A stretch of DNA of 64,000 nucleotides. Source: Candidatus Bathyarchaeota archaeon (lineage in GTDB: Archaea > Thermoproteota > Bathyarchaeia > TCS64). Shown piece after piece: positions 3,637-64,000 of this stretch; within the stretch, counting starts at the first letter, position 1, and each line of letters starts with the position of its first letter. Both the position numbers and the translations under genes were made by a program. Below the pieces are notes generated by a model that was given only the letters and a program-made list of their open reading frames with translations, was not told where the DNA came from and made no database searches. The stretch covers positions 128,001-192,000 of the forward strand of contig CAVYLP010000004.1 in assembly GCA_963769425.1 (NCBI GenBank), in the 5' to 3' direction.

Positions 3637-4104
3637 TTACTTCTTTAGGAAGTTGGGGTTCGTGGAGTCGTACTTGTCGGCCTTAGCCTGGTCACCAGTT
3701 ATCTCCGTGAGCCACTTATCGGCTCCGTCCCTCTTCCAGTCCCCCGCCTTCGTGTGTGCCTTGATGTAGTTCGCGGGCATCGGGTGCGTCCCAACGATCA
3801 CGGGGAGGCCGACGACATTCTCTATGTACTTCTTGTGGTCCTCGATGTGGGGGCAAATGGGGTATCCGGCCAGGTAGCAGCTTGCGAGGAGGATGACCTC
3901 CGCGCCATACTTCTTCATGTCCGCGGGCGCCGCCTCGAGGCGCTCCCCGGGGCAGCCGCCACACGCCATCCAGCCAACGACTTCTATCGGCTCATCCTTC
4001 GGGTACTTGGCGAAGACGCCGTCCCTCTCGATCACCGACTTGAAGCACTTGTTACCGGTGCAGGTCCTGTTCCGGTCACAGATCATTATGCCTACCTTTA
4101 CCAT
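3637..4104 (-). CDS. CGGC-domain protein
   Basis: KVGIMIC..C.G.KC, CGGCPG, SC..CP, VGTH. Confidence 0.85.
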   Translation of the reverse strand: MVKVGIMICDRNRTCTGNKCFKSVIERDGVFAKYPKDEPIEVVGWMACGGCPGERLEAAPADMKKYGAEVILLASCYLAGYPICPHIEDHKKYIENVVGLPVIVGTHPMPANYIKAHTKAGDWKRDGADKWLTEITGDQAKADKYDSTNPNFLKK

Positions 4105-5681: not shown

Positions 5682-6666
5682 CCGACCGCAGTGGTAAGTC
5701 CAGTCCCCAGGGTAGACCGTGGGCTGATACCTCGTGTCGAAGATCACCGACCTATATGGCACCCTGCATTCCTCAAGGACACGTCCCGCCGTATCCTTAA
5801 GGACGCCAAGAAGCGCCCCCTTCTCGACTACGGCGCCGAGTTCTATCCTGTTGTACATTACGCCGCCGTGCTCTGTCTTCGGCCAGCTGCTCCCGTCGCT
5901 GACTAGCTGCTCCGAGTCTGAGCCTACGGGCTCCTCGTTGATCATGCCTATGCCTATGAGGACATTCATCACACCCTGCACACCGGTCTCGACGAGATCG
6001 TCCCAGAGTCTGCCACCTCCGCCCAGCTCAGGGCTCAGTGTAGGTATCCCGACAAGCCCAGCCTGTATGCTCAGGCTCCCCATCATGCTTGGGCGGGTGT
6101 TTACGCCGCCGAGGACTGGCACACCCTGTCCGAAGAGCCTGTATAGCTTCTTGTTCTGATCCCCTACAAGCTTCTCCGTCTCCGGGGTCCCGCGGGCGTG
6201 TATGTACCTCGCCATGAATGCTCGGCCCCCCTCGTGGAGGTCGACGACGAGGTTGGAGCCCTTTGATCGCCTCGTCCCAGATGGTCGCCGCGATTCTCTC
6301 CATGAGCAGGCCCCTGTGATCACCGGGCCAGACCCTGTTCATGTTTAGGTTCTCGTATCCCATTGGTGGCGGCGAGGCACGCTCCGCAGAATTGAATGCT
6401 AGGGGATTGGAGACTGGAATGGAGGTTAGTGATCCCCTGAGCTCCTTCGGGTCCACCCCATCGAAGACCCTGTTACTGATCTCCATACCACCGTACTCGT
6501 CGCCGTGCTGGACTCCCAGCATTGTGGCCCTCGGTCCATCCCTCGCCCCGACGGCGACCCGGACCGTTAGCGATATCGGGGTACCATCCGCAAACTCGCC
6601 AACCTTCGCCTGAAACGTCTCGGTGGAGCCCCGAGTAACCCTGCGCCCAAAAACCGTTAGGGACAT
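5673..6666 (-). CDS. Succinylglutamate desuccinylase/aspartoacylase-family deacylase (frameshift near 6260)
   Basis: HGDE, NPLA, NMNRVWPG in ORF 6028-6666; VVDLHEGG, PELGGG in ORF 5673-6323. Confidence 0.8.
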
Positions 6667-10872: not shown

Positions 10873-11319
10873 CTACATATCTTTCCTCTTCATAGTCGTG
10901 CAGTAGACTCGGAAGCCGATCTTCTCCCAGAACTTATTGCCACGGGGGTTGGACTCTAAGACCTCGAGACTAAGTTCTGAGCCCTTCGGGAAGTGCTTCT
11001 CCGAGATGAGGTTGAAAGAGGCTTCTCCTAAGCCTTTACTTCGTTTCTCTCGACGAATGAAGAACTGGCGGACATACACCGTTGGCTGATCGGGGAAGTA
11101 GTCGTCCCTGCCCTCCTTGTAGAGCATGTAACCGGCTTCCTCGCCGTCTACATTTATCATAACTGCACGCCAATCGCTTCTAAGAAGTCCAATCATCCTG
11201 TTATTTAGCTCCATTATGTTCATGGGGTTCCGACTTCCCTCGTCCTCGATGAGTTGTTTGTTCCAGTTGGCAAGGGTGGGGACATCTGCGAGTGTTGCGG
11301 GTCGGATCTCAATGTTCAT
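10873..11319 (-). CDS. GNAT-family acetyltransferase
   Basis: IRPATLAD, QFFI....RSKGLG, LEVLESNPRG.KFWEKIGF. Confidence 0.85.
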   Translation of the reverse strand: MNIEIRPATLADVPTLANWNKQLIEDEGSRNPMNIMELNNRMIGLLRSDWRAVMINVDGEEAGYMLYKEGRDDYFPDQPTVYVRQFFIRREKRSKGLGEASFNLISEKHFPKGSELSLEVLESNPRGNKFWEKIGFRVYCTTMKRKDM

Positions 11320-11558
11320 CTCAATCACGCCGGTTACCATGGGTTTTCTATCGAAGTTGTTTGACTTAAAGCGGTTATGACATGACTGGCTCAGTATTCT
11401 ACTTGTTTGCTCTAAGTGCAACAAATCCAAAGACCGCATCTGCGAACCATGCCCTAAACCGGAATCTTGTCAAGTAGGCTCATCAGTACGCGCGCGAGAA
11501 AATCCAGCAGCAGAAAGTAATGATTACTACCTTATATATTTCTTAACAAACCTCTGAA

Positions 11559-13077
11559 ATGATGATTTTCATGGCTCAAAACCCTAAGAATAAAATGTTC
11601 ATAGATGGCGAATGGGTTGACTCCTCCTCCGGCGAGAAGTTCGAAGTACGCGATCCATCGACAGGGAAAGTGTTCGAGAATGTTCCATCAGCGTCGTCAG
11701 AGGATGTCGATAAAGCGGTAGAATCCGCTAGAAATACATTCGATAATGGGAGTATGGAGTAAGGCTCCTCCAGCAGATAGAGCGAACGTCCTCCTGAAGG
11801 TCGCGTCGATGCTTGAGGAGAAGATAAACGAATTCGCGGAACTGGAGACGCGCAACTCCGGAAAATCGATCAAACAGTCAAGAAACTACGACCTACCCTA
11901 CACGATCGACAACATACGTTACATAGCTGGAGCGTCTCGCCTGCTCGAAGGCGACGCTATGGCAGAATACGTCGCAGATGGTACAAGCGCTGTGAGAAGG
12001 GAGCCCATCGGCGTCATTGCCGTGATCACGCCCTGGAACTACCCGTTGATGATGGTCATATGGAGAGCCTTCCCTGCTCTTGCGACTGGAAACAGTGTAG
12101 TACTCAAACCATCCTCCTACACGCCTCTTACCACATTAGAACTCGGACATATACTGCAGAAAGCCGGCGTACCGAATGGGGTCTTCAACATCGTCACAGG
12201 TCCAGGAAGTTCAGTCGGAGAGGATCTCGCTCGACACAAGAAAGTTGACATGATCGCTTTCACAGGCAGCACCGAAGTTGGGAAGCGACTATTGGAGCTC
12301 GGGTCGAAAACAGTGAAGAAGGTCTCTCTGGAACTCGGAGGTAAAGCCCCGTTCATAGTTCTTGAAGACGCCGACCTTGACGCCGCCACAGAGGGAGCGG
12401 TAATTGGGGGTCTCGTCAACAATGGGCAAGACTGCGCGAACTCTACGAGGTATTACATCCAAGAGTCTAGGCTCGAGGAGTTCCAAAGTCTACTCGTCGA
12501 GAAGCTAAGCAAGGTCCGTATAGGTGATCCATTTGATCCAGAAACAGATATGGGGCCGCTGATCTCCGAGGCGCAGCGTACAAGAGTCTTAGACTACATA
12601 GAGAAGGGAGTCGGAGATGGAGGCAGACTGCTTTATGGTGGGAAGAAGCCGAGGATAGCCAGACATCAAGGCGGCTTTTACTTGGAGCCCACGGCGATCT
12701 ACACCGATAACGACGACTCGTCTATCGTGAAGGAGGAGATTTTTGGCCCCGTCTTCACAGTCCTCAAGACTTCAGATTTAGAGGACGCTGTACAAAGGAG
12801 TAATGATGTGGTCTATGGGCTTGGCGCATCCATCTGGACCAGAGACGTGACGAAGGCTATGAGGGCTGTAAGGGACCTGAGGTTCGGCACCGTTTGGGTC
12901 AACGAACACGTCACAGTTCCATCGGAGATGCCTTGGGCTGGCTACAAACAGAGCGGTCACGGAGCCTCTCTATCTCGCTACAGCCTCGAAGAGTTCACCT
13001 ACATCAAGCACGTCTACTTCGATCTAACTGGCTTAGCAAGGAAGTCGTGGTATTACCAGGTGTATGGGAAGAAGTGA
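11559..13077 (+). CDS. NAD(P)-dependent aldehyde dehydrogenase, aminoaldehyde/betaine-aldehyde-like (frameshift near 11750)
   Basis: ITPWNYP, FTGSTEVG, LELGGK, NGQDC, EEIFGP, GYKQSG. Confidence 0.9.
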
Positions 13078-13132
13078 AGTATAATTAGCAAGACACAATA
13101 AATGTCGCATCTTTCATAAGAAAAAAATAACC

Positions 13133-14371
13133 TCAACATGTTAAAGCTCCATCATACATCTGGTGCATCAACACCCTCGTGTTCTCAAGTGTCAGTTTCC
13201 TAGGATTGAATCTGGGGAGGCCGTATAGATGCTGGCGTTCATTGAAGATGTACTCTGCGAACCCGTCGATCTCGCCTTCTGGAATGCCGAGTTGTTTCAG
13301 ATTAGTTGGCAGCTCAAGGTCCTCCAATAGCTCCTTAACGCCGTATACGAATCTGTTGGCCGCTTCACGCGGTGATAGACCAATTACATCGTCACCAAGA
13401 ACTTGCCTAGAAACGTATGCGAGTTTCTCGATGCATGCTGGTAGATTGAACTGTAGTATGTAAGGCAGGACAACTCCACATGCTACGCCATGGGGGACTT
13501 TCCAACGAGGTCCCAACGCTTCCGCAACGCAATGTCCCAGTATTGCTGGGCCACCGATCCAGGGGTACGCGATCACTGTTCCTCCTAGGTTCGCAGCAAT
13601 AGCCATGTACCATCTTGCCTCCAGATCGTCCCCCGTGTGGTAGGCTCTTCTCGCGTATCCGAAGACGACCTTCGTGGCTTCCAGCGCCTGAGAGTCGGAT
13701 ATTGGGTTGGCTTCTCTATCTATAAGGGCCTCAACATTGTGGGATAGGGCGTCCATTGCGCTTCCGGCTGTCTGCTTTGGTGGACAGGAGATCACCATTA
13801 GGGGGTCTACTATCGCCACATCCGCCAAGAGGTTACTGCTGGCTGCCCATGTCTTGTATAGACCCTCGATAACGACGGAGTAGTTTGAGACTTCGCTGCC
13901 GGTACCAGAGGTTGTTGGGATGAGTATCTTCGGCTTCGCCGCGACTTTGCTCTTATCTTCTATGGGATTCATATAATTCATCACGTCTCCGGAGTTCGTT
14001 AAACAGAGGGCAACCATCTTCGCAGTATCCAGCACCGCACCACCCCCCACTCCAATGACGAGGTCATAGTTCCCCTCCCTGCCGAATGTCACAGCGGCCC
14101 CTATGCTGTCCGAGGTGGGTTCAGCGGAAATCTGATCGTAGATCTCAATATCTAAGCCAGTATTCCTTAATTTGTCTGCAACTGAATCAGTTATCCCAGC
14201 TTTTTTTACGCCCTTATCAGTGACCACGAGAATCTTCTTACCTCCGAGCCTCTTAGTCTCGGGACCAATAAATTCCTGCACAGCTCCTGTGGCGAAGATT
14301 ACTCTTCGAGGTAAATCATATACGCTCACCCTGGCCACGTTCAGCCTAGTCTCATAACCTTTCAGACTCAA
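13133..14371 (-). CDS. Iron-containing alcohol dehydrogenase
   Basis: GVGGGAVLDTAK, IPTTSGTGSE, DALSHNVE, GHCVAE..PHG. Confidence 0.9.
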   Translation of the reverse strand: MSLKGYETRLNVARVSVYDLPRRVIFATGAVQEFIGPETKRLGGKKILVVTDKGVKKAGITDSVADKLRNTGLDIEIYDQISAEPTSDSIGAAVTFGREGNYDLVIGVGGGAVLDTAKMVALCLTNSGDVMNYMNPIEDKSKVAAKPKILIPTTSGTGSEVSNYSVVIEGLYKTWAASSNLLADVAIVDPLMVISCPPKQTAGSAMDALSHNVEALIDREANPISDSQALEATKVVFGYARRAYHTGDDLEARWYMAIAANLGGTVIAYPWIGGPAILGHCVAEALGPRWKVPHGVACGVVLPYILQFNLPACIEKLAYVSRQVLGDDVIGLSPREAANRFVYGVKELLEDLELPTNLKQLGIPEGEIDGFAEYIFNERQHLYGLPRFNPRKLTLENTRVLMHQMYDGALTC

Positions 14372-14428
14372 ATTACGTCTCTCCTATTGATTGTATGAAT
14401 TAGATGGGTGTTTATCGAGATTTAAAAT

Positions 14429-14449
14429 AAACATGTTTTACATGTAAAA
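14429..14449. promoter_or_regulatory. Overlapping ACATGT palindromes, candidate operator of the Fe-ADH gene
   Basis: AAACATGTTT (14429-38) overlaps TTTTACATGTAAAA (14436-49), beside a TTTAAA TATA-like box. Confidence 0.4.
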
Positions 14450-14636
14450 GATCTCAAATCCCTCATTATGGGTGCGCGCAGGTATTGCACACACACAAAT
14501 TACTAATAATAACGGGTTGGTGCCCCACCCCTGCACCAACTATTAATAAACAAAACTCCTGTGTGGATATTAGTGTCATAATACCTATGTTATTTAGGAC
14601 AGATTCTATATTGCACCTATCGCAAATATTCCACAT

Positions 14637-15260
14637 ATGTTCACAAGGGTCCTCCCTGCTATCATAGCGGGAAACCAAGAAGAGCTAGATGCTATGTTGG
14701 GGCGCCTGCTGGGCAACGTCGAATGGGTTATGCTCGATTTTATGGATGGCAGATTCGTGGCCTCCACAGCACTTATGTTTGACTTAAAATTGCCGAAAGG
14801 GCTCCGTTACGAGGCTCATCTAATGGTAAAAACGCCTATGCACAATTTGGAGGAGCTTCGAGGGAAGGTAGAGTCTGTGATAATCCATGTTGAGTCGGAT
14901 GGTTTCTCGGAGGCGCTGACCAGGGCAAGGAGCCTCGGTTACGAAGTCGCCGCGGCGATCAACCCCGGGACACCGACGAAACTCCTCGAAGAACACCTGA
15001 AAGAGTTGGACAGAGTCCTCGTCATGACCGTTGAACCAGGCAGGTACGGTGCGCCCTTCGTGCCTGCGGCTCTAGAGACTGTGAAATATCTGAGAATGCT
15101 AGCACCGCAATTACCAATCGAGGTCGATGGCGCTATGAATCCAGAGAATGCAAGAAAGGCCAAGGAAGCTGGCGCCAATATCTTCGCTTCTGGTAGCTAC
15201 ATTGTGAAGAGCCCCGACCTTAAGGGTGCAATAATGGCCCTTGAAGCAGCTGTAAGATGA
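14637..15260 (+). CDS. rpe: Ribulose-phosphate 3-epimerase
   Basis: DFMDGRFV, EAHLMV, AINPGT, LVMTVEPG.YG, IEVDG, ASGS. Confidence 0.85.
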   Translation: MFTRVLPAIIAGNQEELDAMLGRLLGNVEWVMLDFMDGRFVASTALMFDLKLPKGLRYEAHLMVKTPMHNLEELRGKVESVIIHVESDGFSEALTRARSLGYEVAAAINPGTPTKLLEEHLKELDRVLVMTVEPGRYGAPFVPAALETVKYLRMLAPQLPIEVDGAMNPENARKAKEAGANIFASGSYIVKSPDLKGAIMALEAAVR

Positions 15261-15490
15261 GATTCTTTGAATGTCGATTCCTTCGAGTGACTATAATCCA
15301 TGTATGTTGGATATGAGGGTTGATCCGTTATTGAATTATTGTGAATTGTGTTCTCCGCTTTGCCTTTTTATTAACGTTTTAAAAATAATTTCCTTAGAAA
15401 ATATACCAATCCGGACCCCATTTATTGGTAAAGTTTAAATTGGTCCTTTGGAGTGGGTTTTCTTAGTATTAAGCTGTCTCAAACGGAGAA

Positions 15491-15793
15491 GTGCTTAGAG
15501 TTTTGTCATCATCTCAACCGTGTTACTCTAGGTGTAGAGATTTTAGCTGCACAAAGAGGGCTATGTCCTTCAGAGGTAAGTCTACGTGGTGCCAATGGAC
15601 GGAGGCGGAGTGTGAGCCGACGAAGTGCACTTATGCAGTGTGCTTTAAGCGTCAGCTCCTCGACAACGGTGTCTGTGGCTTCACAATCAAAAGGAAGACC
15701 CAAGAGGATTCGGAGCCGGATACTTTCCAGTTACCTGAAGTACGTGCGAGAGGTAAACTCGCCAAGAAGGTCGGGGATAGGAGCATCTATTAG
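15491..15793 (+). CDS. Cys-rich conserved archaeal hypothetical (putative metal-binding) protein
   Basis: Eight Cys (CYSRCRDFSC..WC..C..C..C..C); start codon uncertain. Confidence 0.6.
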   Translation: MLRVLSSSQPCYSRCRDFSCTKRAMSFRGKSTWCQWTEAECEPTKCTYAVCFKRQLLDNGVCGFTIKRKTQEDSEPDTFQLPEVRARGKLAKKVGDRSIY

Positions 15794-15820
15794 CCTCCTC
15801 CTGTAAAATCAAGTTCGGCC

Positions 15821-16666
15821 ATGAAGCGGGACATCCGTAGCGAGTTGTCGGGCATTATCCCCACCGAATTAATCGGGCTTGTGCCACGTTCCTTCGACGT
15901 TATTGGTTCAAAGGGCCGAGCGGTGGCGGTCATCGAGGTACCACCTGAGCTTGAGCAATATGGTGTCGCCATAGGGGAAGCCCTGATGCGAGTTCAGAGG
16001 AACGTGAGAAGCGTCCTCTCGAAGGGGACCGAGCGCATGGGTGGATTCCGCGTACGAGAGATGACTCTCCTTACCGGTGACTCAGACACCGAGGTACTCC
16101 ACAAGGAGTCAGGATGCGTATTCAAGGTCGACCCGGCCAAGGCGTACTTCTCGCCGAGGGAGTCGACCGAGAGGGAGAAGATAACATCGCAGGTGGCTCC
16201 CCATGAGAGAGTCCTTGTTATGTTTAGTGGTGTCGGGCCATTTGCCATTTGCATCGCTAAGAGGCAGCCGACAGTCTCGTGTGTCGCTGTCGAGTTTAAC
16301 CCCGCTGGACACAGATACTGCTTGGAGAACATCCAACTCAATAAAGTAGGTGATCGGGTCACAGCCATCCTCGGTGATGTCCGGGAGGTCTGTCCGTCGC
16401 TCGGTGAAAGGTTCGACAGAGTCCTCATGCCACTCCCGAAGGGGGCATACGAGTACCTCGACGTCGCTGTTCCTATGGTTAAACCCGGGGGTATCCTCCA
16501 TTTCTACCATTGGGCACAGAGGGATGACCCCTTCACGGAGGGTGAAAGAATCCTTACAGAAGCCGCTGAAAGTTTTGGTAGAGTAGCGGAAGTAACTGAC
16601 CGCGTCAGGGTCTCCCAATATAGTCCATCCGCTTGGAAGATCAGATTAGATGCCCGTATTGTCTAG
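15821..16666 (+). CDS. Trm5/Taw2 (Met-10+) family tRNA methyltransferase
   Basis: FDVIG, HKESGC.FKVD..KAYFSPR..TER, MFSGVGPF, DRVLMPLP. Confidence 0.85.
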   Translation: MKRDIRSELSGIIPTELIGLVPRSFDVIGSKGRAVAVIEVPPELEQYGVAIGEALMRVQRNVRSVLSKGTERMGGFRVREMTLLTGDSDTEVLHKESGCVFKVDPAKAYFSPRESTEREKITSQVAPHERVLVMFSGVGPFAICIAKRQPTVSCVAVEFNPAGHRYCLENIQLNKVGDRVTAILGDVREVCPSLGERFDRVLMPLPKGAYEYLDVAVPMVKPGGILHFYHWAQRDDPFTEGERILTEAAESFGRVAEVTDRVRVSQYSPSAWKIRLDARIV

Positions 16667-16942
16667 CTACTTGTTCTCTTCCTTCTCGCCTTCCCTCTCT
16701 AGGTCGAGCGGATTGTCGAGCGGGATCGGCGGCGGGGTCGTCGCCATGGTGTAACCAATCCAGAGAACTATGAAGAGCATTATGTAGACAGCCGCCAGGA
16801 TCGGGAGTTTGAAAGCCCAATCAGCTATTTCTTGGCTGATAAATCCAATCCCTAACTGGGGACCGAAAGACCATGCGAAGTACCCGATCATTATCAGCGC
16901 GGTGATCAGCATAATCGAGTATCCAAGCGACTTATCGTTCAA
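16667..16942 (-). CDS. Small conserved archaeal two-TM membrane protein
   Basis: Two hydrophobic segments, then WIGYTMATTPPP.P. Confidence 0.75.
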   Translation of the reverse strand: MNDKSLGYSIMLITALIMIGYFAWSFGPQLGIGFISQEIADWAFKLPILAAVYIMLFIVLWIGYTMATTPPPIPLDNPLDLEREGEKEENK

Positions 16943-17127
16943 TATCTACGCCTCTCGATATCTTGTTGTGCTTAACATTATTAGTCTTTTCTTTATGAAG
17001 AATTAGATATCAGGTTATTCGACTACACCAGCTGACTAACAAGCTCCCTCTCCCCCTCCATTAACCCTCTGAGAATATAGGCAATGGTTAAAAAGGTAAG
17101 CTGGGAATTAATTCGCTTACGTGACAG

Positions 17128-57829: not shown

Positions 57830-58778
57830 CTAGAGTTGGGGCTTCACCTTCTCGGTGAAGAGCCTCATCCCTCGATTTCCTCACCGAAGTGGAATCTGAG
57901 GATGAAGTGGTCGACGCCAAGTGCCGTGTATTCCTTAATGCGGGCGGCGACTTGGTCGGTTGTACCGACTAGGTTGGCGGTTGCTTGGCGAGGTACCTCA
58001 TGTAGGGGGTGTTCGCTGCGTGCTTCGCGTTCCCGGAGCTTTACTTTGAGGGCATCTTCGTCCTCTGCCATAGTGATCATGAGTCCGGCGGACTTCCGGA
58101 TGCTCGAGTAGTCTCTGTCACGAGCCTCGCAGTAGCTCTCTGAACTCATCCAATTTGGCTTTAAACTGTTGGTACTGGAATTGTCCATGCGAAGTTGATA
58201 GCGTCTGCGTGGCGGGCGGCTATCTTGAGGGTGAAGCTGCCTGTGCCGCCGATCCAGATCGGCGGGTGAGGCTTCTGTATGGGCTTCGGGGCGCAGATCG
58301 CGTCTTTTACACTGTAGTATCTGCCCTCGTAGGTGGCCCTCTCCTCCGTCCACATTCTCTTAGCTATCTCGAGCGCGTCGTTGAGCTGCCTGATGCGTGT
58401 GTCTGGGCGAGGGGAACGGGTACCCGTAGGCCTTGTACTCTACGTCTTTCCACCCGCGCCAACTCCGAAGTTGAGTCTACCCTCCGCTCATGTTGTCGAC
58501 GCTCGCCGCCATCTTCGCGGCTAGGGCGGGGTTCCTGTAGCTCTGCGAGGCGACCATGGCGCCGAGGCGGAGCTTCTTCGTGTCCCGGGCGAGGGCGGAG
58601 AGGGTCGTCCAGCACTCGAGACACGGCGTATCAGCAGACTCCGGCGTCAGGAAGAAGTGATCCGACACCCAGAGCGACTCGAAGCCGAGCCGCTCAGCCT
58701 CTGCAGCGATCCCCTGATGCTCTCGTAGGTGAAGCCGTACTGGGGCTCGATCTGCAAACCGAAGTCTAGGCGAGCCAT
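57830..58778 (-). pseudogene. LLM-class (F420-dependent-like) oxidoreductase, several frameshifts
   Basis: FGLQIEPQYG, GFESLWVSDHF, ECWTTLSALA, YRNPAL.AK, PKP.QKPHPPIWIGG and GVDHFI lie in different frames; may be assembly error. Confidence 0.75.
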
Positions 58779-58897
58779 CACTCCTGAGTGGCTGGTGGAA
58801 CGATATAACCCATAACACCTAAACCACGGTTTGACGAGCGTTTAGTTATCTGACGGGGAAGCTGAATTTCTCGAGTTTACAATGGGGAGAAGATGAC

Positions 58898-59740
58898 GTG
58901 TCTTACAAGTTGAGTCTCGAGGAGGTTGAGAAACTCGGCTACTACGACTTCATGGGTTACCTGGGCGTGCCCTTCTTCAACATCGGGGGATTCGCCAGCA
59001 TAGACCACCTCGCGGAACTGTGCCAAATAACGCAGGAGACCAGGATACTGGAGGTCGGCTGCGGGACAGGGGACGAACGCCTGCTACCTCGCCGAGAAGT
59101 ACGGGTGTACCGTCGTTGGCATAGACATCGCCGAGTACATGGTGGGGCAAGCGACCAGGAAGGCGGAGGAACGGGGCCTCTCCGATCGAGTATCCTTCAG
59201 GGTAGGGAACGCCTACCGGCTCGACTTCCCCGACACCACATTCGACGCCGTCATAACCGTCTTCGTCAGCCAGTTCCTCGACCCTGCCAAGGCGTTCCCA
59301 GAGTTCATCAGGGTCCTCAAGGACGGCGGCCGTCTCGGTGTAAACGAGATGTACCGGGCGGAGAACGTGCCCCTAGAGATTAAGGAGAAGGTAGACGAAA
59401 ACGAGAAGGCATTCCGCGAGCTGACCGGGCTGCCCTTCACCCTCCGCAGCCCCGAGACGTGGCAGTCGAGCCTTCGAATCCGCTGGGTTCGAACCCGTCA
59501 CGCTTAGAGAAGCACCCCAACGCCCAGCAGCAACCCTACTCGGAAGTATAGTCGAGGAGTTCGGTGGATGGGGCAAACTCATCGGCACCTTCTGGATGTT
59601 GCTCGTCTACGCCCTGAGGAGCGGGGAGATAGAAGAAGACGCTTTACCAAGTAGGCAGCACCAAGAAGACCCTGATAAGAGACAAGGAGACGAGCAAGTA
59701 CATCGGCTACGTTCTCTGCGTGGGTTCAAAGAACCCTTGA
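58898..59740 (+). pseudogene. Class I SAM-dependent methyltransferase, several frameshifts
   Basis: ILEVGCGTG, then GNAYRLDFPDTTFD, RVLKDGG in another frame; C-terminus KYIGYVLCVGSKNP*. Confidence 0.75.
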
Positions 59741-60183
59741 ATCCTAAGGTTTCTTATGAATAGCTGAAGATTAGACCAGCCCATCAATACAAAAAAGGTA
59801 AACAGTACAATGAATCCCATTCTCCGATTGAGTCTAAAAGAAACTCCAATGATGCTGAATTCAGCTGCATAAAATACAAGAATATATGAGATATGCATTA
59901 TTAAGTTCTCCCTAAATGGGATAAACAAAATATAATCAAGCAATAACTCTAATAGAAGATAGAGAATGATCACTATATTGGATATTATTATCCGTTTTTC
60001 CTCATCACCCTTCAAGAATTCTATTAAGGTGTAGGTAAACGGGATAATCAAAATTATTATCGGGACACCAATGACCCGAACGAGAGTCATTTGATCAAAC
60101 TTAGAGAAAACGTAGACAGCACTCACTAGAATATTAAACATGATGGAGGCAGCAATGAATATTCTATCTCGGTTTTTGTTCAA
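59707..60183 (-). CDS. Multi-TM membrane protein, AT-rich
   Basis: About five hydrophobic helices, LELLLDYIL.IPFR; 3' end may be frameshifted. Confidence 0.65.
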   Translation of the reverse strand: MNKNRDRIFIAASIMFNILVSAVYVFSKFDQMTLVRVIGVPIIILIIPFTYTLIEFLKGDEEKRIIISNIVIILYLLLELLLDYILFIPFRENLIMHISYILVFYAAEFSIIGVSFRLNRRMGFIVLFTFFVLMGWSNLQLFIRNLRIQGFFEPTQRT

Positions 60184-60240
60184 AGGATTCTTTACCTGAA
60201 CACAATTCGATCCCTCGTGTACGTGACCACGTCAACCACA

Positions 60241-60353
60241 AATCACTATTAACTATCAGGTGGATGTGAGGATAAGACTATTACACGTAAGATGAGGCTT
60301 ATACCGAAGTAACTTTGGGATAAGTTTTTTCGAAATCAGGCAGAGCTAAGGAT
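60241..60353 (+). repeat. Intergenic repeat, copy 1
   Basis: AATCACT..ACTATCAGGTGGATGTGAGGATAAGACTATTACACGTAAGATGAGGCTTATACCGAAGTAACTTTGGGATAAGTTTTT..GAGCTAAGGAT. Confidence 0.9.
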
Positions 60354-60408
60354 GAGCACAGGAAAACTTGACGCATGAACAACAAATAAGATGTATACTG
60401 TAACCACG

Positions 60409-61851
60409 TTATTTTTTACCTTCATAGACCTTTGCCAGCTCTCTGGCCTTGTCGAGCGGCGGCTCAATAGACGAGTCTCGTTTATACTCCCTACCCCGAA
60501 GCCGTCTGACATGCTCTCCCTTCGCGTCCCTCAACAGGTTAGGGGTCATTAACAGATCTAGGACAGACCCAGCCATGGTTTTAGACGCGAATAATAGACT
60601 CTTATGACCGATGCCAGACCCGCTGCAGGCAGTAAACTGCCAGCTGTGACCCGGAGCACCATTAACATTACAGGCGGTGTTAAACTCCATGGTCGGAGTA
60701 ATCCAGCTGACATCAGCCACATCGGTGCTTCCGGGACTCGTAGTCCCATCGTCCCAAGCGTCGAAGATCTCCGTTATTAGGTCCTGATCCACATATTTTT
60801 CCCAGTTGGGAACCTTATCCTTCCTTAGACTCGTCTCTCTATCCTCAAGCGGGAAGCTCTTAGCGATCTCCGCCGCGAACTCGTGATCCTCCGGGCTAAA
60901 TCGCTGGGGACCGACGAGCCGCATATTGGCTGTAACAACCTCGCTGAGAACCTTGTTCGGAATCTTATGGTACCCACCCCAACTCATCTCAGCCTCCAGT
61001 CTCGTCTCAGTCATCAACGCAGCTCCCTCAGCTACCTTCAATACACGTTGCTTGATAGGTTCCAGGAGAACCTGCTCGGGAGCCCGGATGTAGTAGTAGC
61101 TGCGCGCATAGTCAGGCACAACGTTGGGCTGACCACCACCGGCCTCGATGACGTAGTGGATTCTAGCCTCGGGGATTATGTGCTCCCTCAGATAGTTTAC
61201 ACCAACATTCATGAGCTCGACGGCGTCGAGGGCGCTTCTACCCGCCTCAGGATTCGCGGCTGCGTGGCTCGATTTCCCGTGGAAGTGGAAGTACGCACCA
61301 CTTATCACGTTGCTGCTGGCCAGGGTAGCCACATTCATATCCCCCGGGTGGTGGCTTAAGGTGGCGTCTACGTCGTCGAAGAGGCCGTGGTTGACCATGA
61401 TTCTCTTCCCGCTGAAGTTCTCCTCGGCAGGGGTACCATAGAATCGAATAGTTCCCTGTATGCCATGTTTCTCCAGCGCCTCACCGGCCGCAATAGCTGC
61501 CGCGAGGGCAGTTGTGCCGTGGATGTTGTGTCCGCATCCGTGGCCCATCCCGCCCTCGATTAGAGGCTCTTTTCGAGGTATGGGTCTGTTGCTTAAGTTT
61601 GGTAGGGCATCGTACTCACCCATGACGGCTACAATTGGTTTGCCTTGCCCTTTTTCGGCCAGAATTGCTGTGGGCATATTGGCGACGCCTTGTTGGACTC
61701 GGAAACCGTTTTTCCTCAGGGTTTCGGCGAGTAGTCGGCTTGATTTTTCCTCGCATAGGCCGTACTCTGCGTAACCCCATATCTCATCGCTAATGGAGGT
61801 TAGTTGGTCCTGGTGGTCTTCTATCCATTTCCACGCCGTTTCTTTGATCAA
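60409..61851 (-). CDS. M20 amidohydrolase, AbgB-like (paralog of 7313-8755)
   Basis: GEYDAL, GHGCGHN, GTPAEE, GRSALDAVELMNVGVNYLREH, GSTDVADVSW. Confidence 0.9.
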   Translation of the reverse strand: MIKETAWKWIEDHQDQLTSISDEIWGYAEYGLCEEKSSRLLAETLRKNGFRVQQGVANMPTAILAEKGQGKPIVAVMGEYDALPNLSNRPIPRKEPLIEGGMGHGCGHNIHGTTALAAAIAAGEALEKHGIQGTIRFYGTPAEENFSGKRIMVNHGLFDDVDATLSHHPGDMNVATLASSNVISGAYFHFHGKSSHAAANPEAGRSALDAVELMNVGVNYLREHIIPEARIHYVIEAGGGQPNVVPDYARSYYYIRAPEQVLLEPIKQRVLKVAEGAALMTETRLEAEMSWGGYHKIPNKVLSEVVTANMRLVGPQRFSPEDHEFAAEIAKSFPLEDRETSLRKDKVPNWEKYVDQDLITEIFDAWDDGTTSPGSTDVADVSWITPTMEFNTACNVNGAPGHSWQFTACSGSGIGHKSLLFASKTMAGSVLDLLMTPNLLRDAKGEHVRRLRGREYKRDSSIEPPLDKARELAKVYEGKK

Positions 61852-61960
61852 GTCTTATCGAATATTCATGGCGAGGGTGGATGTATAAAGTATTAAAAGT
61901 ACACATTGGAATTAGGCGATCGATTTTTAGTTGGAGTGAATTGTAATTTTGATCAAGGCT

Positions 61961-62052
61961 GACTATCAGGTGGAACCGGATAAGACATTCACCCCTAGAT
62001 TTCTATTACGTTAGATGAGGCTAATGCCAAAGAGACGTTGGGATTAGATTTT
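61961..62052 (+). repeat. Intergenic repeat, copy 2 (14-nt insertion after TAAGA)
   Basis: GACTATCAGGTGGAACCGGATAAGA[CATTCACCCCTAGA]TTTCTATTACGTTAGATGAGGCTAATGCCAAAGAGACGTTGGGATTAGATTTT. Confidence 0.88.
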
Positions 62053-62113
62053 CTTAACCAAGTAGTTTGATAAAAAGCGCACGTTTTACCCGAATAGATG
62101 GCAATACTATATT

Positions 62114-62629
62114 ATGGGGTATCCAAAGACTCTTTTGGAGATTCTCTTGTCTGACAGAGTTAAGACCCTAAAAGCATTCGCTGAAGTTCTCTTCGGTAGA
62201 TTCGATAACTCGGTGAAGGATCTGAAAGAGGCCGAGGCTGTCTGGAAACCCGTGGGCGAGGCAAACAACATCATGTGGATTCTCACCCACCTTTCTCAGG
62301 AGTGGAATGTAGGCGTAACCCGAGCCATCAAGGGCGACCCGACATTCAAAGTTGCAGGCTGGCCTGATGATTACGTCGGCAACTCGTCATACTCCTTGAA
62401 TAAGATTATGAAGGACCTTAAACAGGGTAGGGAGATTTTCATTGGAGCGTTGGACAAGCTTAGCCCCGCGGACCTGGATGTTGAGATTAACACGGCCCGT
62501 GGGGTTAGGAAACGTGAGATGATGCTTATGATGCTTATATCAGAGATTTCTCATCATGCGGGGCAGATCGCCTACATTAGAGGAGCAGTCGGTCGTAGGA
62601 AACTGACTGAACCTGCTTTCCTCGCATAA
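62114..62629 (+). CDS. DinB-family protein
   Basis: NNIMWILTHL and EISHHAGQIAYIR motifs. Confidence 0.8.
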   Translation: MGYPKTLLEILLSDRVKTLKAFAEVLFGRFDNSVKDLKEAEAVWKPVGEANNIMWILTHLSQEWNVGVTRAIKGDPTFKVAGWPDDYVGNSSYSLNKIMKDLKQGREIFIGALDKLSPADLDVEINTARGVRKREMMLMMLISEISHHAGQIAYIRGAVGRRKLTEPAFLA

Positions 62630-62688
62630 GGCCCGCACATTATTGGGTAAATAACGTTATAAACAGAGGCGTAAGCGCCTCGCCAATC

Positions 62689-62803
62689 AATCACTAGATT
62701 ACTATCAAGTGGAGGTGAGGATAAGATTTCTTATACATTAGATGAGGCTAATACCAAAGTGAATTTGGGTTAAGATTTTTCCGGATAGAGTTGAGCTGAG
62801 GAT
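62689..62803 (+). repeat. Intergenic repeat, copy 3
   Basis: AATCACT..ACTATCAAGTGGAGGTGAGGATAAGATTTCTTATACATTAGATGAGGCTAATACCAAAGTGAATTTGGGTTAAGATTTTT..GAGCTGAGGAT. Confidence 0.9.
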
Positions 62804-62866
62804 AAATCTATGGCAAGGCTGTACACGCGATAAAAATTAAAGAAGTATCGACGATATAATCGAATC

Positions 62867-63709
62867 ATGGCTGAAACAATGAGAGTGCACGGGTACTCAA
62901 GGGAGGATCTCATGAAGATGGATGTAGGCTCTCTGAGGGCAGTGCTGCACGAGAGAACGCACCACGGTATCGAAGTTCACCTCTACAGGATCCTTAAGGG
63001 CAAAATGGAGAAGCCAAAGGAATACGGCGCCCAGGCAAAATACATTCTAGGGTTATGGGAGGAGAGGGGACTCCCTATCGACACACCGGATATCCAATGG
63101 TGTAAGTGGAACATCGAAGCAGCGGAGAAGCTGAACAGAGGCGAAAGGGTTGAGCTCGAAACTAGTAAGCCTGAGCCCTTCACCGACGGCGAGATGCTGA
63201 CGGTGAGGAAGCTCCTATACGGGAGGAGATCTATCCGCCAGTTTAGGAATAAGCCCGTACCTGAATCGATGCTACGGGAGATCCTCTATGCGGGCCTCAT
63301 GTCTCCGCAGGGATGTAACGTCGACTCGAGGAGGTTCCTGATTCTGAGGACGCCCGAGGAATGGAAACTCGTCAGTAGCGACCTACCGGTGGAGAACTGT
63401 GTAATGATCCTTGTCCTCCAGGACACGAGGGTCTACAAGACTCTGGGGTTCGATAAACGTGCGCCGCAGAATATGCTCTATGACGCCGCAGCCGCAGCTG
63501 ACCATATCTGCCTGATGGCTCACGCTCTGGGACTGGGTGCGTGTTGGCTCACACATGGGGAAGAGACTCAGGTGAAGATTAGGCAGCACTTTGGTCTGGA
63601 CGAGGGTATCGTGAGTCGACTCCACATAATTGTGGGGTGGCCGGATGAGGCCCCTGTGAAGTCTCTTAGAATGAGCCTAGATGATGCAATAATTGAGACT
63701 CGAAAATAG
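62867..63709 (+). CDS. Nitroreductase-family protein with N-terminal extension
   Basis: RRSIRQF...PVP, SPQGCN, L.AHALGLGACW, VGWP. Confidence 0.85.
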   Translation: MAETMRVHGYSREDLMKMDVGSLRAVLHERTHHGIEVHLYRILKGKMEKPKEYGAQAKYILGLWEERGLPIDTPDIQWCKWNIEAAEKLNRGERVELETSKPEPFTDGEMLTVRKLLYGRRSIRQFRNKPVPESMLREILYAGLMSPQGCNVDSRRFLILRTPEEWKLVSSDLPVENCVMILVLQDTRVYKTLGFDKRAPQNMLYDAAAAADHICLMAHALGLGACWLTHGEETQVKIRQHFGLDEGIVSRLHIIVGWPDEAPVKSLRMSLDDAIIETRK

Positions 63710-63760
63710 TCCAAACAACTCGTGGGACGTTGATTGGAGAAAGGAAATTCATCATTATAA

Positions 63761-63801
63761 TTCACTGTTGACTACCAGGTGTAAGTGAGGATAAGACTAT
63801 T
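63761..63801 (+). repeat. Intergenic repeat, copy 4 (5' half only)
   Basis: TTCACTGTTGACTACCAGGTGTAAGTGAGGATAAGACTATT; similarity then stops. Confidence 0.8.
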
Positions 63802-63930
63802 GAATTTGAAGTGGCAGGATTTCCATTAATTTTGAATAATGAATTCTATTTTAAAAAAAGGTAAAATCAAATTACCTATCTTTGGTAATGGTGTGAAAAA
63901 ATGAAGAATCTCAGATGAAAACCTACTAAA

Positions 63931-64000
63931 TCACCTGACATAGTCGTCAAATTTCCAGTAGTGCTCTTCTTCCTGCATCACTATGTCTTCGAACATTCGC
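63931..64000 (-). CDS. C-terminus of a ferritin-like domain protein (partial)
   Basis: ..RMFEDIVMQEEEHYWKFDDYVR*; ExxH di-iron motif. Confidence 0.55.
   Translation of the reverse strand, partial: RMFEDIVMQEEEHYWKFDDYVR

Follow-up and report, generated by a model that had tools for sequence, protein, structure and literature searches.

An array of co-oriented repeats in a low-GC island

Near the right end of a 64,000-nucleotide (nt) stretch of the metagenome-assembled genome (MAG) of a Candidatus Bathyarchaeota archaeon (genome G000, 91% complete; the stretch, contig C4:128001-192000, is called the window below) lies a 4.2-kb island of low GC content (59737..63932) between two convergent core genes, coding for a class-I S-adenosylmethionine (SAM) methyltransferase and a double ferritin-like protein. 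Self-repeat comparison and MAFFT alignment showed four copies of an intergenic repeat in this island, all in the same orientation and with a single gene in each interval. Positions are those of the window unless a contig is named; other G-numbers denote genomes of relatives, whose MAGs are incomplete, and L-numbers denote loci from relatives or metagenomes. Bathyarchaeia are abundant, uncultured archaea of sediments, and to our knowledge the mechanism by which they gain accessory genes is largely unknown. Literature searches on cassettes, on intergenic repeats of archaea and on mobile elements of Bathyarchaeia yielded no description of the repeat. Among sequencing runs, the window stretch was listed only in Logan contigs from metagenomes of sediment and peat, with shares of up to 0.19, and in no RNA data set.

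The repeat was modular, consisting of a module A of ~30 nt, a module B of 40 nt and, often beyond B, a second, weaker A (A′). Module A had the consensus AGTATCAGGTGGAAGTGAGGATAAGRCTATTGAG with ~2 bits per position over 81 copies, and its conservation ended sharply past CTATTGAG; module B carried a palindrome of 11 pairs; A and A′ were direct, not inverted, repeats. With up to 3 mismatches allowed, the A pattern matched the window three times (60252, 62701 and 63771, all on the + strand) and the B pattern three times (60289, 62012 and 62739), whereas 100 shuffles gave expectations of 0.00 and 0, respectively; copy 2 escaped the A pattern solely because it is 2 nt shorter. A preliminary description of the window had proposed four co-oriented copies with one gene per interval, the genes being an AbgB-like amidohydrolase (−), DinB (+) and a nitroreductase (+), in a region richer in AT than its surroundings. 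The array was borne out far beyond chance, the three gene calls agreed with the Peptidase_M20, DinB_2 and nitroreductase genes listed in Table 1, and GC content was 45-53% over 60-64 kb versus 57-63% across most of the window.

The same description had taken a 14-nt insertion in copy 2 and the abrupt end of copy 4 as possible recombination breakpoints, and neither survived comparison with the rest of the family. Among 106 composite copies, drawn from G000 and from 20 array loci of relatives that were picked for element richness, A alone was the commonest form (52), followed by B (30), AB (17), BA (3), BB (2) and ABA (2), so that copy 4 is an ordinary A-only copy. The insertion in copy 2 corresponded to a family-wide long-linker variant: the A-B linker measured 26-31 nt in 14 of the 47 B copies (59 nt in one of the 14) and 12-13 nt in another 12, and no A was recognisable at that stringency beside 21. 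A′ stood beyond B in 22 of the 47.

An nhmmer profile built from the three long window copies detected 8 long and ~8 short copies in G000, grouped in co-oriented clusters (Table 1). It found no further copy in C4 from 191.8 kb to 411 kb, and the array therefore does not continue past the window. Neighbouring copies less than 5 kb apart had the same orientation in 78 pairs and the opposite one in a single pair, and only 6 of the 106 copies fell within called open reading frames (ORFs). Since all four combinations of flanking-gene orientation occurred (29, 28, 25 and 14 of 96), the orientation is a property of the array rather than of neighbouring transcription. With copy 1 as the query, matches were obtained in 13 of 17 other genomes of the genus, several with one match only, in 0 of 7 genomes from other genera of the family, and, weakly, in one of 16 more distant genomes. 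The highest first-look candidate counts given were 167 (G012), 76 (G011) and 73 (G009).

Table 1. Features of the island and of its surroundings, and repeat clusters elsewhere in G000
Feature	Position	Strand	Remarks
Class-I SAM methyltransferase gene	58898..59736	+	Flanks the island on its left
AT-rich multi-pass membrane protein gene	59707..60183	−	158 amino acids; first island gene, outside copy 1; no family match
Repeat copy 1	60229..60362	+	Start-codon stub 60229-60237 (reverse complement GTG GTT GAC), A 60252-60283, B 60289-60327, A′ ~60335-60360
Peptidase_M20 amidohydrolase gene (cargo)	60409..61851	−	Between copies 1 and 2
Repeat copy 2	61953..62080	+	A 61962-61985 (2 nt shorter), long linker, B 62012-62051, degenerate A′
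DinB_2 family gene (cargo)	62114..62629	+	Between copies 2 and 3
Repeat copy 3	62678..62815	+	Shine-Dalgarno remnant, A 62701-62732, B 62739-62777, A′ ~62785-62813
Nitroreductase gene (cargo)	62867..63709	+	Between copies 3 and 4; conserved block from 62798, within A′
Repeat copy 4	63759..63802	+	A-only form, terminates at CTATTG
Double ferritin-like gene, 3′ end	63931..64000	−	325 amino acids, runs beyond the window; right flank; 3′ end is the duplicated attachment sequence in relatives
G000 cluster, window array	C4 188-192 kb	+	
G000 cluster	C1 3-11 kb	−	nhmmer
G000 cluster	C1 311-315 kb	−	nhmmer
G000 cluster	C1 335-336 kb	+	nhmmer
G000 cluster	C6 70-72 kb	+	nhmmer
G000 single copies	C1 94.6 kb, C4 411 kb, C6 905 kb		nhmmer

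Relation of the repeat to DUF4760 genes

In the arrays of relatives, genes of one family, DUF4760 (PF15956), repeatedly occupied the opposite strand with their start codon 7-23 nt away from the 5′ side of A. In the reading direction of these genes, the order was B; then A, as CAATAG-TCTTATCC-TCACTTCCACCTGAT; a short spacer; a GTGA-type Shine-Dalgarno sequence; and ATG GTT GAT, so that the sequence flanking A on its 5′ side (TCAACCAT...TCAC), which is semi-conserved, corresponds to the start codon and Shine-Dalgarno sequence reversed. When reverse-complemented, the window copies aligned along all of this stretch with regions upstream of intact DUF4760 genes, six in number, in which the ATG and the TATA-like box of A were ~46 nt apart. 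Across the 20 array loci, A (with up to 7 mismatches) occurred within 90 nt upstream of 12 of the 17 DUF4760 genes of at least 150 amino acids. A related block, AATCGTAGGTTTTATCCTCAGTTCATAC..., was found equally far from the DUF4760 starts in G010 and G001, two members of the genus that have no element of the window type, and a weaker version preceded DUF4760 in two other genera (G018, G021). A consensus of the transcription factor B recognition element (BRE) and TATA box, derived from positions −36 to −28 of 42 G000 tRNA genes (for example GAGCTTATCTAGG and gataaGCTTAAAAT), resembled CAATAG followed by TCTTATCC, and the spacing sets the predicted transcription start directly 5′ of the Shine-Dalgarno sequence. 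A BRE/TATA-like box thus stood at a fixed distance before the start of a gene family and was conserved in relatives. From this position and resemblance, we infer that A is the core promoter of DUF4760 genes, probably together with an operator.

DUF4760 proteins are ~180-200 amino acids long and carry a membrane helix at the N-terminus. An AlphaFold model (predicted local distance difference test score, 91) was all-alpha with a single long N-terminal helix and had no significant match in the PDB, where the top match, the helical (EP) domain of plant EDS1 (E 0.3), is a weak lead only. Neither PHROGs nor PADLOC held a family for these proteins, their look-alikes in a protein atlas were DUF4760 clusters only, with Bathyarchaeota as the commonest taxon, and a full-text literature search returned passing mention of DUF4760 and no work about the family.

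The family itself was absent from G000, where PF15956 had 0 matches, compared with 74 in G012 (103 candidates), 24 in G011, 15 in G009, 14 in G002, 12 in G016 and 11 in G010; likewise, all 38 ORFs matched by our own DUF4760 profile belonged to loci of relatives and 0 to G000. In G012, which reaches at least 74 copies per genome, DUF4760 genes formed back-to-back tandem arrays with a period of ~600 nt (contigs C72, C77, C50, C84, C86, C75 and C90). All 16 A copies of G000 were orphans. One of them (C1:7276) keeps a stub of 15 codons (MVDLTVIQSAYYMVA), copy 1 of the window keeps three codons, two others keep the Shine-Dalgarno sequence only, and the remainder diverge past CCACCTGAT. In L094 and L078, a stub of ~38 codons (through AAIYY) was followed by cargo sequence. 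The chief objection to a fixed crossover at that boundary is this variable truncation on the gene side, from 0 to ~38 codons.

The preliminary description had read the element as a recombination site and had named a match to a decayed gene as evidence to the contrary. Such a match was found, on the opposite strand, with the DUF4760 5′ region: the element coincides with the putative promoter, Shine-Dalgarno sequence and first codons of these genes, its stubs vary in length, and orthologues of its cargo genes occur without it (see below). The element corresponds to no known recombination site. On balance, we regard the repeat as the surviving 5′ control module of DUF4760 genes from a lost tandem array, situated in an integrated and horizontally exchanged island. 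In this Bathyarchaeia genus, variable islands would hold DUF4760 genes in large tandem arrays of a single orientation, and these arrays would turn over rapidly, with genes being pseudogenised, truncated and swapped for unrelated accessory genes while their 5′ modules persist. G000 would have lost every DUF4760 gene and retained 16 orphan stubs, four of which mark the window array; the stubs would share one orientation because they inherited it from the tandem array. The 4.2-kb island would have entered between the ferritin-like and methyltransferase genes, and gene-sized units would move by ordinary recombination between the abundant co-oriented A and B repeats rather than through a site-specific enzyme of their own. 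If so, a near-invariant 30-nt control block of DUF4760 outlives its genes, which calls for caution: intergenic repeats that share one orientation can be what a lost gene family has left behind.

Tandem multigene families with conserved 5′ regions are known, as are bacterial "mobile promoters". The Bathyarchaeia repeat is like them in having a near-identical upstream block with start codon among diverged paralogues, sometimes before unrelated genes, and differs in that most copies are orphans that delimit unrelated genes after loss of the whole family. An unrelated gene of this kind occurs in G012, where a GH53/CARDB glycoside hydrolase gene (L048:3147-5740; G012:C24) lies 24 nt past a DUF4760 start stub, directly behind A, and looks like a foreign gene under the promoter of the family.

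Several observations weigh against the repeat being merely what is left of DUF4760 genes. In the loci of relatives, 89 of 106 A copies were orphans, a count that includes A′ and weak matches and comes from the loci chosen as element-rich. Their mean number of mismatches over 29 positions was 3.78 (89 copies), close to that of the G000 copies (3.75; 16 copies), compared with 2.83 for gene-linked copies (12 copies); orphans are hardly more diverged, while passive relics should decay faster. A was near-identical between paralogues with 22-49% protein identity, which requires that the constraint be very strong or that gene conversion or active spread be at work. Variants of A predominated by species, with ACTCAGG in G009 and G011 and AGTGAGG in G000, G002, G012 and G016, and this suggests concerted evolution or amplification. 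The A-B-A′ arrangement has the appearance of a B insertion bordered by a duplication of 29 nt, for which a promoter offers no explanation. Only 9 of the 16 G000 stubs faced a gene that they could drive. Finally, the nitroreductase unit (three genomes) and a short-chain dehydrogenase/reductase (SDR) unit (G000, G012 and G009) keep their junction with the 3′ end of A while everything beyond A differs, the pattern expected of exchange units bounded by A. Orphan conservation, identity of A among paralogues, species variants and the bracketing of B by A keep a recombination site and a selfish repeat alive as readings of the element.

Exchange of gene units and probable integration at the ferritin-like gene

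The site of the island varied among relatives. Homology to G008 and G017 ended at 59736/59724, at the end of the methyltransferase gene, and restarted at the ferritin stop codon. In G008, the ferritin-like and methyltransferase genes were 11 nt apart and the site was empty. We also retrieved 80 metagenome loci surrounding homologues of the ferritin gene. Four of them contained the methyltransferase gene as well; the site was empty in L104, L088 and L087 (gap of ~25 nt between the two genes). In L094, the flanks of which were 93-95% identical to those of L104, it held a different array of 2.7 kb, in the order A; a 342-amino-acid ORF without a family; B+A; a 266-amino-acid methyltransferase; B+A, with all repeats in the orientation that they have, with respect to the ferritin gene, in the window. 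The L094 island was bracketed by a 33-nt direct repeat (1086-1118 and 3782-3814; 31 of 33 identical) that consists of the final 30 nt of the ferritin gene and its stop codon. In L079, an extra 4.3-kb insertion that codes for a NosD/beta-helix protein separated the ferritin gene from a second 33-mer (~5950-5990). L078 was arranged alike, its second 33-mer (5693-5725) being 400 nt away from the ferritin gene.

Judged by sequence, these duplications of the ferritin 3′ end are the signature of integrase-type integration with tandem accretion, pointing to an integration hotspot that is empty, filled or doubly filled among relatives. The 33-nt duplicate of L094 and the accretion in L079 and L078 resemble the gene-3′-end islands of archaeal tyrosine integrases (see the review PMC8371274). 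The differences are that no duplicate of the ferritin 3′ end was detectable within the G000 island, that no integrase lies in or beside it, and that such islands do not account for the internal repeat. The methyltransferase gene beside the site is frameshifted in G000 (161 amino acids plus a 122-amino-acid ORF, versus 282-287 amino acids in G008, G017 and L094), reflecting either an assembly error or a pseudogene.

Individual gene units recurred in different settings. In G000, G002:C45 and G012:C68, the nitroreductase block began with the final 14-16 nt of A (GGATAAGACTATGG), and the sequence to its left was unrelated; two metagenome contigs broke where this block meets A. A pair of A copies enclosed the SDR gene (C6:70.4 kb) in G000, in G012:C68 and in G009:C75, a pair of B copies did so in G002:C47, and in G011:C2 the enclosing A copies were reverse-oriented; the neighbours of the gene differed in every array, and G016:C26 had it without the repeat. 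The G000 copy (C6:70441-71224) is split into ORFs of 75 and 170 amino acids, the gene being intact (260 amino acids) in G009 and G011. Between species, nucleotide identity was 83-89% for cargo versus 71-81% for adjacent core genes. DinB_2 orthologues (77% nucleotide identity) were present on other contigs of G012 and G013. Thus, gene-sized units recur in different arrays and cassette-like exchange occurs; among the units between blocks that recur in arrays of different species are detoxification and stress genes (nitroreductase, SDR, DinB, M20). Whole-unit variation among relatives, which the preliminary description had predicted, was found both in these differing neighbours of the SDR and nitroreductase genes and at the island site, empty in G008 and three metagenome contigs and occupied by another array in L094. 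Recombination between repeats is probably the simplest vehicle for the exchange, because 30-150 nt of co-oriented homology lie on both sides of a unit.

Four cargo units had orthologues free of the element: M20 in G016, G011, G009 and G007 (76-83% nucleotide identity), without A or B beside it, and, without A or B nearby, close orthologues of a helix-turn-helix-acyltransferase-beta-lactamase unit (G002:C24), an NHL propeller (G016:C10) and a flavin adenine dinucleotide oxidase (G012:C26). These occurrences argue against a site that moves along with its cassette. Contig joints, for example from 62779 to 63776 and, across a linker, from 63797 to 62740, were considered as excision products and discarded, being other genomic repeat copies that align across two window copies. 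No joint in the metagenome contigs could be read as an excised-unit junction of the kind that had been proposed. Edges of homology within A (61976, 62798 and 63783) were indistinguishable from alignments that end at atypical window A copies.

These data bear directly on an explanation that we consider unlikely, in which a cassette system of a non-integron kind, so far undescribed, would have A as its core site and a recombinase acting in trans. DUF4760 genes would be its commonest resident cassettes, a 30-bp promoter-bearing core would take the place of a folded attC, and units would be captured in integrated islands and exchanged between Bathyarchaeia species. Such a system would account for the near-perfect co-orientation (78 pairs versus 1), the sharp outer edge of A after CTATTGAG, the conservation of orphan A copies as good as that of gene-linked ones, and the order of A-only ends and (B+A) repeats, which is shared by the window array, that of L094 and that at C1:335 kb. 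It would also fit the closer relationship of cargo than of core genes between species and the A junctions that the nitroreductase and SDR units keep in at least three genomes with differing neighbours, the SDR gene being inverted relative to the repeats in G011. However, the boundary on the stub side is variable, A has no dyad symmetry of its own, two G000 C1 arrays have their A-only copy at the opposite end, and both the four element-free orthologues and the want of a readable excision joint speak against it.

A 441-amino-acid tyrosine integrase with an N-terminal zinc ribbon is encoded at the end of a 15-kb array (L041:2142-3467; G002:C34), on the strand of the repeats and 440 nt from the last A, as a cassette system might have it. 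Against such a system, integrase adjacency was seen at only two places among those listed (G002:C34 and G016:C10), and G011, with 76 element candidates, had no PF00589 match. In G000, the single PF00589 (tyrosine recombinase) gene lies 90 kb away (C4:281837-283093); a link between its product and the G002:C34 integrase was rejected, the two being unrelated (best BLASTP E 0.058). We found no serine recombinase, resolvase or Y1 transposase in G000, a MAG that is 91% complete, and no recombinase, of IntI type or other, near the window array. The sole integrase match among the 80 metagenome loci was ~8 kb from the ferritin gene.

Chromosomal integron arrays (with attC sites or Vibrio cholerae repeats) and clusters of attC sites lacking integrases (CALINs), among them the archaeal ones of Ghaly et al. 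2022 (PMC9668308), offer a close outward likeness: they share a repeat of ~100-130 bp in each gap, small accessory and stress genes, co-orientation, unit content that varies among relatives and, mostly, no adjoining recombinase. According to that study, archaeal integrons keep the canonical bacterial single-strand attC fold. By contrast, the Bathyarchaeia repeat has neither the attC fold nor R″/R′ inverted ends, its genes lie in either orientation, it includes a promoter-like box and a DUF4760 gene start with one variable boundary, and no IntI was found. Single-strand folds of copies 1-3, on both strands, gave small local hairpins only and no attC-like hairpin from end to end, with z-scores of −0.4 to 0.0 for four of six strands and −2.5/−2.9 for copy 3; by reading, RYYYAAC and GTTRRRY core ends were absent at the ends of the aligned copies. 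The preliminary description was right to set the element apart from attC, given that it has no end-to-end hairpin and no recombinase nearby, and from CRISPR, given that the spacers here are 0.6-1.7 kb long and hold genes, compared with the 25-50 nt of CRISPR spacers. Its analogy with dif modules did not hold: A lacks a dyad, the inner arms of the B palindrome measure 5-6 bp, and all copies are co-oriented, whereas Xer/dif modules have a 28-bp site, inverted arms around a 6-bp spacer and alternating orientation. If the blocks were recombination sites after all, they would constitute a cassette system independent of integrons; if they are not, they would show cleanly how promoter stubs can serve as portable homology within islands of fast turnover.

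Mosaic-repeat and RNA explanations

The free combination of modules raises the question of a selfish origin. Bacterial interspersed mosaic elements (BIMEs), repetitive extragenic palindromic (REP) sequences and the pneumococcal BOX elements with their A-B-C modules are mosaic intergenic repeats, compared here by their general description. The Bathyarchaeia repeat is like them in its modules of varying order, strictly intergenic location, one palindromic module and lineage-specific copy number; it differs in its uniform orientation over tens of kilobases, in one module being the 5′ end of a protein-gene family, and in that G000 lacks the REP-associated tyrosine transposase (RAYT/Y1).

It is improbable, in our view, that the repeat, or at least B, is a selfish mosaic resembling these elements or miniature transposable elements with inverted repeats (MITEs), which would insert into A and duplicate it with a strand bias, for example relative to replication. 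The composite forms counted above would be natural products of such an element, as would the direct A and A′ copies that flank B in 22 of 47 cases, the absence of B from G010 and G001, which have DUF4760 with another A variant, and the lineage-specific copy number of up to 167 candidates (G012). Species-predominant A variants suggesting amplification, an orientation constant over 17-40 kb within contigs, and depth peaks at element bins in sediment metagenome contigs point the same way. Nevertheless, neither terminal inverted repeats nor short target duplications were seen in 47 B-centred and 81 A-centred aligned copies, and we know of no transposase class that a 29-nt duplication would fit. 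Y1 transposases of the IS200/RAYT type (PF01797) had 0 matches in G000 and were matched in 4 of 18 genus genomes, none of them the copy-rich G011, G012 or G016, with the caveat that these MAGs are incomplete. Furthermore, no filled-versus-empty site was found for the element alone, and the position of A relative to DUF4760 starts is conserved across genera.

A further explanation, which we hold to be quite improbable, makes the element a small or cis-acting RNA: either the reverse complement of B would be transcribed from a promoter in A′, or the element would be a leader that sequesters the Shine-Dalgarno sequence. The 11-pair B hairpin is paired in 84% of cells, A′ occupies the position of a promoter for B on the opposite strand, and the DUF4760 Shine-Dalgarno sequence, ATCAGGTG(A), is able to pair with CCACCTGAT in some of the copies. 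These features were offset by covariation no greater than in shuffles (84.0% versus 83.4% paired, a score reached by 62 of 500 shuffles), by folding energies no better than those of shuffles for four of the six strands tested, and by the lack of an Rfam match at E up to 1 on both strands of 58000-64000. Neither the MITE nor the small-RNA alternative of the preliminary description was established, there being no terminal inverted repeats, short target duplications or significant covariation. Two smaller candidates were also set aside: a hammerhead-like reading of GATGAGG...AAAG, the core of which does not fit, and a micro-ORF in B (MRLIPK), whose stop is absent in about one quarter of copies and which has no ribosome-binding site at a usable distance.

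Searches of viral contigs with an exact A 22-mer returned 0 matches; a B 20-mer gave 5, all of them 21-22-nt chance matches in unrelated phage ORFs, with neither A nor DUF4760 present. The 158-amino-acid membrane protein encoded outside copy 1 matched 0 families in Pfam, PHROGs and PADLOC.

Other small repeats and mobile remnants were noticed along the way. GC-rich palindromic motifs (GCGCGCGC, GCACGCGC) were ~5 times denser in some arrays of relatives (L041, L046, L047 and L040) than in G000; they flank cargo such as the SDR gene, and one copy of ~60 nt sat within a B hairpin with an 8-nt duplication, CCAAAGTG (L041:12772-12888); they may be a second small mobile repeat. As a general cargo boundary, GCGCGC motifs were rejected: they were not enriched in G000 (674 observed versus ~1070 expected), and the window island had none outside M20. 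A DDE_Tnp_1 transposase fragment of 111 amino acids (G000:C1:333174-333509) lies by an MFS transporter gene, 1.6 kb from the repeat pair at C1:335 kb. Lastly, a second low-GC stretch of the window (11001-17000; 47-53% GC versus ~60% around it), with no repeat copy inside, may be another island.

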